A program made the position numbers and the translations under genes. Of a DNA stretch of 64,000 nucleotides, positions 5,276 through 31,927 are shown piece by piece; within the stretch, counting starts at the first letter, position 1, and each line of letters opens with the position of its first letter. Source of the stretch: Octopus vulgaris (lineage: Eukaryota); assembly GCA_951406725.2 (NCBI GenBank), contig OX597815.1, positions 118,358,001-118,422,000 of the forward strand. The letters are read 5' to 3'. The notes beneath the pieces are model-generated. The model saw only the letters and a program-made list of their open reading frames with translations. It did no database searches and was not told the origin of the DNA.

Positions 5276-5678
5276 GGCGGCGAACTGGCAGAATCGTTAG
5301 CACGAGGGGCGAAATGCTTAGCGGTATTTCGTCTGTCGTTACGTTCTGAGTTCAAATTCCGCCGAGGTCGACTTTGCCTTTCACCTTTCGGGGTCGATTA
5401 AATAAGTACCAGTTACGCACTGAGGTCGGTATAATCGGCTTAATCCGTTTGTCTGTCCTTGTTTGTCCTCTCTGTGTTTAGCTCCTTGTGGGTAGTAAAG
5501 AAATAGGTATTTCGTTCTGAGTTCAAATTCCGCCGAGGTCGACTTTGCCTTTCATTCTTTCGGGGGTCAATTAAATAAGTACTAGTTACGTACTGGGGTA
5601 GATGTAATCGGCTTAATCCCTATGTCTGTCCTTGTTTGCACCCTCTATGTTTGGTTTCCTATAGGCAATATAGAAATA
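5276..5678 (+). mobile_element. tRNA-derived SINE family A, internally duplicated, with 17-bp TSD
   Basis: Head ggcggcgaactggcagaatcgttagc, B-box gagttcaaattcc, core gcctttca.ctttcggggtcgat..aagtaccag. TSD aataaagtacagctatg at 5259-5275 and 5679-5695. Confidence 0.9.
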
Positions 5679-20310: not shown

Positions 20311-21146
20311 ATGGAAAGTTGGATTCCAAGAATGGTCCCTATACTTGAAGGTGATCCGGATCGAAAAGTGGAGTTTTGAGGGTGGTACTTGACAAGATGT
20401 ATAGAAGATGCACACTTTCCAACAAACATCATCTGGAGGTACGTGGTTACATTTAAATTAAAGTTATAAATACAAAGTTAAAAAGGTAAAAATAGCAACT
20501 GCTGAAAAAGTTGTTTTGCTAGAATTGTTTGCCTATTTATGGATTTTTAGCAGTGGTGAAAATATACGTATTTATGCTAAATTGGTCTTATCCGTTTTGC
20601 AACTATTTTTATTATTATTGACCCTCTTTAAGGCGGCGATATGGTGGAATCGTTAGCACGCTTGGCAAAATGTTTCTAGGCATTTCGTCCGTCTTAATGT
20701 TCTGAGTTCAATTATCGCGAGGTCGAATTTGCCTCTTGTCCTTTTGGAGTCAATAAAAAAAAGTACCAGTCAAGCACTGGAATTAATGAAACCGACTTAC
20801 CCCTTCTCTAAAAAATTGCTGACCTTATACCAAAATTTGAAACCATTTATTATTAATCCCCTTTAAGGCGGTGAGCTGGCAGAATTTCCTCCGTGTTTAC
20901 ATTCTGAGTTCTAATTTTTGTAGTACAGCTTCACATTTGACACTTATTTTCACTGCACGACAATACACACAGCTTGTTTCTTAATGAATCTTAAAAGCGA
21001 AAACGGTCACTGGCAAGCTTCGCAGTAGAAGCCAGGCTCAGTCCAGCACCTGGTTTCCAAGTTTAGTGCTTGAGCCTGATGCTAGCAACTCTATTCGTAA
21101 AAGTACTTTCGTTACAAAGACTTGTCGCCAAGATAAATATTTAAAC

Positions 21147-21210
21147 CACCTGATGAATGACTGTGACTTGAAAATTTAAAGAAATTAACAGCCATGAAAC
21201 GATCGTAGTG
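21147..21210 (+). ncRNA. Minimal type-I hammerhead ribozyme motif (Penelope-type)
   Basis: cac-CUGAUGA-augacugu...acagccau-GAAA-cgaucg-UA-gug. Intact core, 7/8-bp stem II, palindromic stem III, GUA cleavage triplet, 3-bp stem I. Confidence 0.65.
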
Positions 21211-21432
21211 ATATATTAATTATATTTTTTTAATAATTTTGTTATATATTTAAATAATATAAATTAAATAATCTTATGTATTGGCTTAAGTTTTTCATTG
21301 TATGAATTGCTTAATAGTGGTTTTGTCTCTAATTTAATATAATATAATATTTTACTATAAAATTGGATTCAATCCTAAATCTGATTTTTCCCTGTAAGTT
21401 TGGATTTATTCCCTAATAATTATTATATATAT

Positions 21433-21465
<33 letters not shown>

Positions 21466-21622
21466 CTCTATTATATTGACACGGGCGTGGCTGTTAAGAG
21501 TCCGTTTCTCAACCGTGTGGTTTCAAATTCAGTCCCACTGCGCGGCACTTTTCGTATGTTTCTTCTACTATAGCTACAGACCGACCAATTTGGTAGACGG
21601 AAATGTGTGGAGAGATCCATCA

Positions 21623-21702
<80 letters not shown>

Positions 21703-22045
21703 TTGTGGGTCTGTATCCATACCGCTTGACAATCGGTGAGGGTTTGTTTATGTATCTGTAACTTATCGGCTCGGTTTACCGATAGAATAAGCCCCAACTT
21801 TGGAAAGAATAAGCACTTGGATCGATTTTGTTTTCAATTAAGCCTTTTGAGGCAGTACCGTGACATAACCGCAGTTAAATGACTCAAACAAGTGAAAGAA
21901 AAACGAATGTATTTGGCAAAAGTGGATATTGCTACACCGTACGTGTGCGAGATACTTTTGATTGTTACATTTTGACGATCCCTATCAAAACAGCTTTCCA
22001 TTTAGTAATCATTAGTCTCCGCATAAATGTGTAAGTTCGCCTGCG

Positions 22046-25979: not shown

Positions 25980-28900
25980 AAACAAAAATATAATCTATGA
26001 AATTTATTCATAAAAATAGATGTTACATTAAATTTGTCTACTTGTAACAGTAAAATGGAATGAGATTCATCAAAAAAAAAAAAAAACAGGAAAAAAATAA
26101 AGTAACTAAAATATTAAAATGAAAATTGTAGAATACAGTTTGTACATGTTTTAATTTTCTACAATAACTGGTCTAAATACATGTGGCTATTTGAGGAAAG
26201 AAGGAAAAAAAAAATTGACAAACTATCATTCATGCCATATATACAAGTATGATTTTAAAAAAACATTCATAAAAAGGCCAGATTAAACTGAAAGACTATG
26301 ATTGGAAGAATGCTGCAGAAAAGTGCAAATGATTGGAAGAATGTAGAGTTACAAAACAATACATATGGATATTTATCAAAATATGAATGTATCTAAAATG
26401 GTTAGAAAGTTTTATACTCCATGTTAGAAAATATAAAGTATTTCACAAAAATAGATATTTTCTTTCATTAAAAAAAAAAATTATTGCTTATTTAAAGTGG
26501 AATGAAATATAGTTAAAAGGAAAAACAGAAGAGCAACTTAGTTGATGCTAAGTTGGTTTTTGGCACGATTTCATTCTTGAACTGTTTGTTTCTCTTTAGC
26601 ATGAATTTATATATCCATGTTTTATTATTGTTAATTCACTACTGAAGAGAAAGATTAAAGTGAGGGAAAAAAAAAAAAAAAATCAACTCTGTAAGTAGTA
26701 GTTATGTAACTGCAAGCATTACTGTATCTAATAACATGATCTAGTTGTTTAGTAGGAGACCAGCTTCAACTATGTAACAATTAGTAACAAGAGGATTTAC
26801 CTAATTATCAGACTGGGAATATGGAAGGCAAGTTAATAATTGCTTACTGGCATGAATGAGAATCAGCAGTTGTATGTAGGAATCCTTGTAGTAGTATGTT
26901 ACGAAACACTGAAGAATCACACAATATCGAAAATACAGTATATAAATAAATTTAACTTATGGGTCTCTTGCATATCGCAAAAACTAATATAAAATTAGAG
27001 AGTGGATGTAACTATAAATTTAAAAAAAAAGGAAGGTTTCAATTCTTGAATATTAATTATTTATATGAATATGTGGACCAATTTCCTCAAGGCACCAACA
27101 GTTGCGAATAATTACATTCGAATTTGGCAAAATAATAAAAGAAATTTATGAAGGTGTAGAACCCTAAATAGTATTTAGAATAAGTTATAAATTCAATATC
27201 TGTTTCAGTAAATGTTGAGTCTTAGATAATTCAACTGCATATGATTAAGTTTTACTGCTTTTCTTGAATTGTAAAAGTTTAAACTACATGTCTAGTCACT
27301 TCCCTGTAATGGAACATTATGACTTCGGAAATAAATATAACAATAGTTTTTTAACATGCCTCGAATCATAATAATAATGATTTCAAATTTTGCCACTAGG
27401 GCAGCCATTTTGGGGGAGAGGATAAGTCGATTACATCAACCCCAGTGTTTCACTGGTACTTAATTTATCAACACTGAAAGGACGAAAGGCAAAGTTGACC
27501 TCGGTGGAATTTGAACTCAGAATGTAGCAACGGACAAAATGCTGCTAAGCATTTCGTCCAGCATGCTAACAATTCTGCCAGCTCACTGCCATAATAATAG
27601 TAACAATAATCCTTTCTACTATAGGCACAAGGCCCGAAATTTGAGAGGAAGGATAGTTGATTACATCGACCCCAGTGTTTCACTGGTACTTAATTTATTG
27701 ATCCCAGAAGGATGAAAGGCAAAGTCAACTTCGGCAGAATTTGAACTCAGATCATCAAGGCAGATGAAATACAACCAAGTAATTCGCCTGGCGTGCTAAC
27801 AATTCTGCCAGCTCGCCACCTTTATAATAGTAACAATATTAAAAATATTTACTGTCACATAAGATGATGCAATAATGCTGGAGAGAAACACCTTAGTAGG
27901 AAAGTTAAATAAAATGTATATATATATATATATACACATAAACACAGTGAAATATTTACTGTGAAAATGAAAAACAGAAACACCCAACATTGTAATAACT
28001 AGAACGTATTACGGAAGGATATAATGTAAGTCACAAGACTAAAGTTTGTTAAAGTGTTAATCAAACTGCATTCACCTAGAACTCCATAGATATTTTATCA
28101 ATCAGTACTGGAAAGATTAAAAGTAAATGCAATCTTTCGAAAGGTGATCAACAAAGAAAAGAGAGAAATGTATTAAAATTGGTACAATGAACCATTGTCT
28201 GCAATCTGTTATATCACATTATTTATTTTATTTTTCTAAACATCATTTATAATTAGTTATATTTATATCAAGGTATTTCAGGTGAGCATATTGCTATATC
28301 TATAAATCTAAAATGAATTATTAGGAAGACATCAAATGTTCAGGTTATGGAGGGTGGAGTTGTTGTTGTTAAATAAAAAAGGAGTAAAAGCACTTTGTGA
28401 TTTTTTTTCTTTTTTAGGTTAGCAAATCATATCAAGTAACTACAAAAAAAAAAAAAAAAATTTCCACTTAGAAAGTGCATTTAATGTCTATAGATAAAAA
28501 TTAGTCTATATATGGCAGTATTTATACACATTGCTATGAAAATATCAAGGCATTCAAGGAACATTAAAAGATTTCATTTGTTAAAAACATAGTGAATTTG
28601 GGTGGGTGGTTTTCATACTATAGATTAAAAATTTAAAGACAAAATTACAAAAAAGTGTCTTATGTATGAAATCTATAATAGAACTATGTATGTCACTATG
28701 TTTACTCACAGCTAAATTCAACTAGCTCTAGGATATAAAATATTAGAAGTTCAACAGAGTGACCCTAGTAAAAATGACTTGGTAGCATTTGACTGTGAAT
28801 GCAAATGGCAAAGATAATCTCATGAAAAAAGAAAGCAGTCACTCTTATGAATTTTCTGTTGGTACAGAAAATATGCTCCGAAATCACTTACATGTATAAA

Positions 28901-30049: not shown

Positions 30050-30958
30050 CTACGACTTTAGAGGCTGTTTTGATGGATCTTTTGAAATGTCATCTTTGTC
30101 TAGAGTATCTTTGTAAGTGTTATTAAGATCTGGAGAGCCTGCTTTCCGACCACTTTTGTTCTTGTATAAATGCCATAATTCTTTCACTAAGTCAACTAGA
30201 ACCAAGTCTGTGGAGTTCTTAGAAACAAGGCGTAATACAAAAAATCCGTCATCTCGCAGATAGTCTGTTGTAAAACGATGCACCAGTTTCTTGTCTTCAC
30301 TTGTGAATATATCCTCTGAAGACTTCAAATATTTAGCGATATAATTAACATGAGACTGACGGAAAATTGTGCGATAAATCCATAACAATAAATTGCCACA
30401 TGTAACTATAGAAATAAAGACTAACCAAAACCAAAGAAAAATGAAGATTTTTTCATTAAATAGATTAACAGGAAGAACACACTGGACAGTGAAACGTTGA
30501 ATGTTCTGTAACTGCCTTATCTCAAAATCACAGAGAGTCACACGAGGGAATCTGACGGATTCTTTCCAAGGAACCTTATTACGTACCATTTCAAGAACTT
30601 CATAACCATATACTGAAAACTGGTTAGACATAAAGGCATTCAATAAGAAAAACTGTCCAATGACATTTGCAGCATACAGAGCTTTCACACAAACATAGAA
30701 TCCAACCAAAAATGTCCCTTCTCTTTTTGAACACATCAGACAGCAAACTTTTGTCATTTTCTGCCTCATTCGTACAACATAATTCATTTTATATTCGCGG
30801 TAGGTTTCCAGCCAGCGATCCATGTAAAACGCTATGTGTTCAATAGTTTTCTGACGGTCTTCAGGGGATCCAAGTTGAGTTTGTTCAGCCAAGTCAACAA
30901 CTCGCTCTAAATTAACACCAGATACACTGCTTAACAACCTCCAGATTATGTTAGGAAA
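30050..30958 (-). CDS. inx: Innexin, last coding exon (end of TM2 to C-terminus, 302 aa + TAG)
   Basis: Acceptor tttcattttcAG at 30960-30959, then FPNIIWRLLSSVSG... Innexin motifs FPRVTLCDF, VQCVLPVNLFNEKIFIFLWFW and YLRDDGFFVLRLV. Stop TAG at 30052-30050. The ORF-track TTG start at 30937 is not the true start. Confidence 0.96.
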   Translation of the reverse strand, partial: FPNIIWRLLSSVSGVNLERVVDLAEQTQLGSPEDRQKTIEHIAFYMDRWLETYREYKMNYVVRMRQKMTKVCCLMCSKREGTFLVGFYVCVKALYAANVIGQFFLLNAFMSNQFSVYGYEVLEMVRNKVPWKESVRFPRVTLCDFEIRQLQNIQRFTVQCVLPVNLFNEKIFIFLWFWLVFISIVTCGNLLLWIYRTIFRQSHVNYIAKYLKSSEDIFTSEDKKLVHRFTTDYLRDDGFFVLRLVSKNSTDLVLVDLVKELWHLYKNKSGRKAGSPDLNNTYKDTLDKDDISKDPSKQPLKS

Positions 30959-31927
30959 CTGAAAATGAAAAGAATATACATATATTAAGAAACTGAAAAC
31001 TTGGAAAGCATAAATGTGTAAGAAAAAAAAAAATGGTGAAAGACAACTTCAGTTTCCCCCAAATTACTTACAAGACAATTTTAGAAGTATGATTCCAAGT
31101 TAGAATAAAAAAAAAACAAAAACAGACATCTATCACAAGCCTAAGGCCAAAATTTTTTGAAGGAGTGGGATACTTCATTAAAACTAGCCCGGTACTTGAA
31201 TGGTGTTTTAACCTCCATCCCAGAAGGATAGAGGTTAAAATTGACTGTGAATTCAGAATGTAAAAGGAACATAAATATCAATTTGGTGCCTGAAAACATT
31301 AAAACTCATAAAAAAATGTTTTTTAAAAGCATCGATGATTTGGTAATCAATGCAGAAACATGGGCCAATGAGGTGACTCATCTGTGGTCACTCAACTTGT
31401 CATAAGTAGCAGCTAAATTTCCTTCTAATAACACCTCACCAACTCAGGAAAGAACACAATGAATAATATGGATCTAGTTTTATTCTAGATAGCAAAAATG
31501 GGATGATAGCCACAGCTAGAATCCTTGTAATAATAGGACAGCTTGATTAGGGCTGCTCTGGATCTAAACAATAACAACTGCAGGTACAAAGAAATAAATT
31601 CATAAAGGAAGAGAGTCAGGTGAGGAAATATGGATATCGAAACAGAATGTAAGAAATATTATTCTGGCTTGAATTTGAATCTTGTATATTGAGAAAATAG
31701 GACTTAAAAGCATTACGTAAAGATTCTAAATAAATTTGCATTTTTCTTTATTTAAAAAATTTTTTTGAAATAAATAACACGAAATTGAATGAAATTTTGA
31801 CTTGTAATTTCATAATTCTACTTCCTTTGTAAGTGGCTTCAGGAGAAGGATGAACATCTAGTTTTACTTCGAACAATATGAAACAGTTTCCTTGTGTCTA
31901 TAAATCAACAGTGAGACAACTATTTAA

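Follow-up and report, generated by a model that had tools for sequence, protein, structure and literature searches.

Hammerhead ribozymes have been published for the Hydra clade of Penelope-like elements, an octopus family with a hammerhead (Hydra-1_Obim) among them (Craig et al. 2021, PMC8557442). As that paper presents it, the clade encodes a reverse transcriptase (RT) followed by a GIY-YIG endonuclease (EN), with R..WK, DKT, CxCX5C and CxxC/CxH motifs, prefers (TA)n targets, and has, close to the 3' end, a type-I hammerhead whose stem II is flanked on either side by one additional base; the same paper and another also describe Penelope-like elements with inverted 5' arms and a 'tail' (PMC8557442, PMC11167929). 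The minimal hammerheads of metazoan Penelope-like elements have a long stem II, a short stem I, a palindromic stem III and a predicted dimeric form (Cervera and de la Pena 2014, PMC4209133), and those for which cutting is reported cut poorly, only as dimers or with help (PMC4209133, PMC11167929). A leader intron beside the ribozyme is known in D. virilis Penelope (PMC4209133, PMC2377424), where the intron ends at the 5' side of helix I (PMC4209133). Transcription of that element and of Chlamys-3_cRei starts at an initiator-type site inside the pLTR, the intron lies a few tens of bases downstream of the start, and most transcripts are spliced (Schostak et al. 2008, PMC2377424). Where these papers deal with introns, they stress retention in genomic copies and mention no spliced genomic ones; the reason for retention is stated as unexplained (PMC8557442), and an antisense template has been proposed to account for it (PMC3846280). 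Poseidon PAc of Anolis uses an uncut sense RNA template, AT-rich targets and two internal RT starts that define its tail (Frangieh et al. 2024, PMC11167929). Animal non-LTR retrozymes, short and non-coding with a type-I hammerhead, are related to Penelope-like elements (PMC7229834; bioRxiv 10.64898/2026.07.22.740005).

The 64,000-nt stretch of Octopus vulgaris DNA analysed here (the window) contains on its + strand an insert that is quite probably a 301-bp spliced copy of a Penelope-like pLTR, reverse transcribed from a spliced, uncut mRNA leader into (TA)n, with a hammerhead that is normal for its family and predicted to cut only as a dimer. The preliminary description had drawn an element beginning at 20920 and proposed a genome-wide search for other copies; the ribozyme core and stems are indeed kept in other copies, but the upstream flank is unique. 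Of 1362 first-look candidates from a genome search with 20900-21425, 40 were scored, and the best 39 other than the window copy itself are 96-99% identical and begin at 21121-21137, whereas the sole genomic match of 20900-21124 is itself; thus the true start is at ~21125, and the insert comprises 21125-21425 followed by (TA)n. Its first 12 nt (21125-21136) match the sequence before the splice donor in four long copies (L050, L051, L055 and L056) and are the last 12 nt of a short first (leader) exon at a 5'-truncated insertion end; that the bases ahead of the ribozyme might be the end of an ORF was rejected on the evidence of the long copies. A splice junction (21136/21137), at which a GT..AG intron of 0.70-0.83 kb is absent, leads into the second pLTR exon (21137-21352), which runs to an inner 3' end site (~21346-21352) recognized from the ends of inverted arms. 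A ~75-bp tail between the two 3' end sites follows (21353-21425), ending 56-61 nt before the ATG of the ORF in full elements. The (TA)n microsatellite (21424-21465) is the likely insertion target, (TA)n being found also at the 3' end of related loci. On their 5' side, 20 of 29 non-self loci have a partial inverted arm, which the window copy lacks; in 19 of the 20 the arm terminates at element position 222-228 and so misses the main end by ~75 bp. Short repeats at 5342-5652, 20620-20910, 21480-21900 and 27419-27838, which we take to be common octopus SINE-like elements, flank the insert, which sits ~8.6 kb past the stop codon of an innexin gene with a large exon at 30050-31048 (- strand; Pfam PF00876, E 8.8e-59).

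The ribozyme (21147-21210, + strand), a minimal type-I hammerhead judged from its sequence, a structural descriptor, covariation and a dimer fold, has the CUGANGA and GAAA boxes and the UH cleavage site in type-I order. Stem I is formed by CAC (21147-21149) and GUG (21208-21210), the CUGAUGA box occupies 21150-21156, stem II pairs 21157-21164 with 21188-21195 around a 23-nt loop, the GAAA box (21196-21199) leads into the 8-nt palindrome of stem III, ACGAUCGU (21199-21206), and the predicted cut falls after A21207. The preliminary description had listed the same parts, with matching coordinates for the two boxes and the cut, and its reading of the motif as a Penelope-type minimal hammerhead (type I) that would work as a dimer and lies in a non-coding insert at (TA)n stands. 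It had written out both strands of stem II but overlooked an A·C mismatch (21160/21192), which leaves 7 of 8 pairs. It had also called the motif near-intact; the motif is present, but its form is the norm for the family and not the product of decay, since 66 of 150 descriptor matches have an identical core and stem ends, and the same applies to the A-U pair closing stem II and the 3-bp stem I, which may nevertheless limit activity.

The motif would carry little weight by itself. A loose core pattern has 2 matches in the window versus 3.46 expected, which is not significant; the structural descriptor, composed after the motif had been seen, has one match in the window and also matches in 3 of 200 dinucleotide shuffles. 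An Rfam search, proposed earlier as a check, returned no hammerhead match at the gathering score or at E<=10, and the single-strand fold of 21130-21225 is no better than those of shuffles (z -0.27). The real support for the hammerhead is instead copy number, covariation and position in a Penelope-like repeat. The 150 descriptor matches across the fetched loci, which are non-independent and include some not tied to a Penelope-like element, were used to count covariation through the descriptor rather than by a formal test. The outer pair of stem II is U-A in one and C-G in the other of two variants of the window's own subfamily (A), and its closing pair is A-U in subfamily A and U-A in a sister subfamily (B); in other families stem I is unrelated in sequence yet paired. 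Eleven sequence types of the 8-nt stem III segment occur among the 150 matches. The descriptor fixed only the outer three pairs of stem III, leaving free the inner pair, which is impossible in a hairpin; it is Watson-Crick in 8 of the 11 types (A-U, U-A or C-G; G-U in one, unpaired in two) and in 146 of the 150 matches.

What had been taken for an independent non-autonomous element is instead the pLTR, or 5' leader, of an autonomous Hydra-clade family, the window sequence being 97-99% identical to the pLTR of this ORF-bearing family. One long copy (L068) has the order pLTR, ATG, RT, GIY-YIG, 3' UTR, intron, hammerhead, and carries a frameshift and stops. A protein search (127 candidates scored) led to intact frames of 821-852 codons in 10 of 11 fetched close relatives, which belong to subfamily B, with 87-89% protein identity to subfamily A; among the fetched loci no intact ORF was seen in subfamily A itself. 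The 838-aa protein of L103 is encoded by a single ORF with RT first and the GIY-YIG EN C-terminal, and contains YRDD (position 359), VVY (708), YIG (731), RIKWK (41, with K where published members have R), DKT (128), CTCRDKSNC (689; CxCX5C), CYLC (795; CxxC) and CRH (824; CxH), with just one cysteine between VVY and YIG and no CCHH. By-eye comparison shows it to match the Hydra alignment that has been published (PMC8557442), and its homologues, which include cephalopod ones, often carry PF26215. Pfam has no RT or EN match for this protein and a PDB sequence search with it found nothing, so the identity of the two domains rests on motifs and the published alignment. On these motifs and the by-eye alignment, the window copy is assigned as the pLTR of a Hydra-clade Penelope-like element. 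Naiad identity was rejected, the EN being C-terminal, as was Neptune identity, there being no CCHH and DKT rather than DKG. The family has the (TA)n target, pLTRs, inverted 5' arms and tail; together with the domain order, the protein motifs and the type-I hammerhead with its extra base on each side of stem II, these are shared with the Hydra clade as published.

Published Hydra members, in contrast, are mostly shorter than 3 kb, and no intron is mentioned in the parts of that paper describing them, whereas the present elements reach ~5-6.5 kb (~5 kb in L068; 6.3 kb between ribozymes in L103) and have a pLTR intron of 0.7-1.85 kb and an asparagine-rich stretch (PMC8557442). The family also differs from Hydra-1_Obim, whose hammerhead is distinct in sequence, with a stem III region of 9 nt (PMC8557442). 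The asparagine-rich stretch lies between RT and EN at ~490-600 of the L103 protein, and resembles the N-rich inserts of Adineta Penelope ORFs (PMC3846280). At least four further Hydra-like families with 43-49% protein identity are represented by L112-L117 and L120, several with open frames of 778-1091 codons and hammerheads of their own with a long stem II; inspection by eye of L112-L116 showed no obvious acceptor 13 nt before their ribozymes.

Long copies of both subfamilies, unlike the window copy, carry the 0.7-1.85 kb GT-AG intron, and their ribozyme exon starts after TTTTAG, 13 nt before the core. From the window copy the intron is cleanly absent, 12 nt that precede the GT donor being joined directly to the ribozyme exon at 21136/21137. 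The same joint occurs in assembled contigs of two public runs, where the 831 nt skipped have GT..AG ends without microhomology; spliced copies are present in the genome, so the contig joint is not proof of RNA splicing. The same comparison over the leader plus the ORF yielded no match. Exact matches genome-wide number 303 for the spliced junction, 93 for the intact acceptor and 21 for the intact donor, counts that include both arms of inverted insertions and differ from copy numbers. The donor variants ATAA, TTAA and AAAA each occur both spliced and unspliced.

A motif lying 23 nt below the cut has 566 matches, of which the first 100 (101 arms) served as a sample of subfamily A; the pick is unbiased in that the selecting motif lies only below the cut site. 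Among the 57 arms that reach the acceptor, 42 are spliced, 8 unspliced and 7 uncalled. All but one of the 42 spliced arms retain <=31 nt of exon 1, and 11 retain exactly 24 nt, beginning at the A of TCATTG, which we take to resemble the initiator (Inr) consensus; the unspliced arms extend at least 40-233 nt into the intron. In subfamily B, where the intron is 1853 nt, 30 arms (the first 30 of 860 matches) comprise 17 called spliced, each retaining <=23 nt, 6 more that are spliced by eye, 3 of them using a donor 4 nt further on, and 7 unspliced. The two subfamily B donors lie 4 nt apart (oriented positions 6721-6731 of L103; 1544-1554 of L051 in A); in subfamily A the first GT is gone and splicing uses the second, a fixed difference in donor between the subfamilies. 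One subfamily A insertion has, in both arms, a third donor ~1.1 kb upstream joined to the same AG. A two-intron model in which an upstream donor is joined to a middle exon was rejected, as no such junction was found; the only two matches were direct joins of the upstream donor to the acceptor, from one insertion.

Elements picked by their ORFs keep the intron in 15 of 15 pLTRs of 9 elements (2 of the 11 picked had no scored pLTR), and the difference between 0 of 9 such elements and 17 of 24 subfamily B arms spliced is significant (Fisher p 3e-4). The sorting by copy type is not absolute: the ORF-linked 3' pLTRs of L069 and L070 are spliced, and in L068 the 5' pLTR may be spliced too, as judged from just 7 nt. 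That splice state is sorted by copy length points to two pools of RNA. On a tree that includes 95 spliced and 23 unspliced arms (118 in all) and has a bootstrap that is not fully settled, spliced short copies are interspersed with intron-bearing ones; there are 18 state changes, at least 7 forced by well-supported branches, a single spliced clade is rejected (p-AU 2.5e-8), and two sets of identical sequences span both splice states. By this phylogeny spliced copies arose repeatedly.

That the missing stretch was lost by deletion of DNA, leaving the copy silent on its RNA template, is hardly credible: although splicing is known here from DNA alone and the contig joint may derive from spliced genomic copies, the ends are exactly GT..AG without microhomology, different GT donors (two in A, two in B) join one AG in each subfamily, and the tree has many independent origins. 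Quite improbable, too, is that the short spliced copies are a non-autonomous retrozyme-like or SINE-like family of one or few origins, served in trans by the enzyme of the Penelope-like element. Short copies do outnumber long ones and retain the ribozyme and both 3' end sites, and a 2026 preprint derives animal retrozymes from pLTRs (bioRxiv 10.64898/2026.07.22.740005). In addition, the window's own subclade has 15 spliced rows and no unspliced member in the sample, so that secondary spread from a spliced source is possible within it. However, the rejection of spliced monophyly and the identical sequences in both states argue against such a family, as do the presence of three donor variants in both states, 5' ends that are heterogeneous yet limited by one motif, and the fact that no head-to-tail array of the 301-bp unit occurs in 30 fetched loci. 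The lack of tandem arrays of units in those 30 loci, the ORF-bearing parent and the splice junction carried by the copies likewise distinguish the insert from animal retrozymes, with which it shares its short, non-coding form, type-I hammerhead and relation to Penelope-like elements; the candidate of an independent retrozyme was rejected for want of head-to-tail units and because the ORF-bearing parent is direct. The hundreds of precise spliced insertions, their repeated origins and the frequent presence of the junction in both head-to-head arms indicate that, in vivo, spliced sense RNA serves as a template for reverse transcription, and the element likely inserts from both spliced and unspliced RNA.

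A different question is whether the hammerhead cuts. The minimum free energy cofold of two copies is a double hammerhead (-20.0 kcal/mol), while in the monomer the active fold (-2.6 kcal/mol) loses to an inactive one (-6.8 kcal/mol); the window hammerhead is therefore predicted to cut only as a dimer, which fits the poor cutting of published minimal hammerheads. Of 101 arms, 75 extend past the cut site, 21 begin below it and 5 end within 2 nt of it, two of these being internal deletions by eye. The remaining 3 compare with ~2 expected from a hand estimate that assumes uniform ends in exon 2, the ends near inversion junctions being noisy, so there is no enrichment of copy 5' ends at the cut site, and cutting shows no sign of setting them. 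It is possible, though we doubt it, that the hammerhead is conserved but practically non-cleaving, as a fold, a protein-binding site or a passive passenger. The many arms that pass the cut site and the few that end at it would agree with this, as would a stem I of just 3 bp, the low activity reported for minimal hammerheads (PMC4209133) and the finding that cleavage is dispensable in vitro for another Penelope-like element (PMC11167929). Yet the core, C3-G8, the cleavage triplet (mostly UA; G17 was excluded by the design of the descriptor) and self-complementarity persist in families whose stems I and II are unrelated, and the anole ribozyme is described as cutting when protein is present (PMC11167929). 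Such a non-cleaving structure is compatible with a spliced-leader origin of the copy.

If the insert is a copy of a spliced leader, transcription may start in the upstream pLTR, at the initiator-like motif that precedes the donor by ~24-29 nt, a position placed from copy ends and the Inr consensus. The GT-AG intron ending 13 nt before CUGAUGA would then be removed, as its absence from the DNA of the copies attests, the GIY-YIG endonuclease would nick (TA)n, and RT would initiate at either of two internal sites that lie before the ORF, ~145 and ~218 nt below the cut; the outer one is 56-61 nt before the ATG, and a start at either would yield leader-only cDNAs. The window copy spans the cut site, which means that its template was uncut or re-ligated. 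Unspliced RNA, forming a pool of its own, would be the source of the long ORF-bearing copies. For Poseidon PAc, in vitro work has demonstrated that RT starts internally and that the template is uncut; that element shares with the octopus family its sense template, AT-rich target and two tail-defining starts. Its starts, however, are reported within the ORF, with the ribozyme extending over the start codon, whereas in the octopus family both would be upstream of the ATG and the tail is ~75 bp (PMC11167929). The two pLTRs of one element differ by 0-1 of 139 bases in six subfamily B elements, versus 1-15 between elements, and in L110 the 5' repeat extends 380 nt or more above the initiator. Both observations fit the ribozyme-made circle that has been proposed (PMC4209133), but also read-through of tandem copies. 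In a speculative extension, which we hold to be unlikely, the hammerhead would itself cause the retention of Penelope introns: a cut 71 nt below the acceptor would pre-empt splicing and give an unspliced, unit-length (circular) template, while spliced RNA would give leader-sized copies. Were this so, the family would document both routes as they operate naturally in vivo, and a purely antisense template would be ruled out.

The ribozyme, then, is ordinary for Penelope-like elements, and both it and the clade were already known; in its long stem II, short stem I, palindromic stem III and predicted dimer it resembles the metazoan minimal hammerheads, from which the present case differs in that the genome contains both splice forms as hundreds of fixed copies (PMC4209133). 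With D. virilis Penelope and Chlamys-3_cRei the family apparently shares the initiator-type start inside the pLTR and the intron a few tens of bases below it, the intron being 75 bp in D. virilis Penelope versus 0.7-1.85 kb here (PMC2377424). Because the acceptor precedes stem I by 10 nt in the octopus family, splicing leaves the core stems unchanged. The openly accessible literature searched, judged mostly from titles and abstracts, contained no report of spliced genomic copies of Penelope-like elements. The splice record is thus the useful part of this locus. Insertion from two templates may help explain why Penelope-like elements usually retain introns, and the young sister subfamily with intact ORFs makes both the splice model and the role of the ribozyme directly testable.

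Two minor observations concern related sequences. In the family with a 778-codon frame, the hammerhead (~4990-5070 of L113) apparently has CCGAAGA instead of CUGANGA, by eye in one copy. A tandem array of 38-bp units in ~100 or more copies (L124 from 1500; G000:C1:206238670 to at least 206243210) contains the upstream splice-donor region of the element, and is apparently a satellite born from the 3' UTR of a Penelope-like element.
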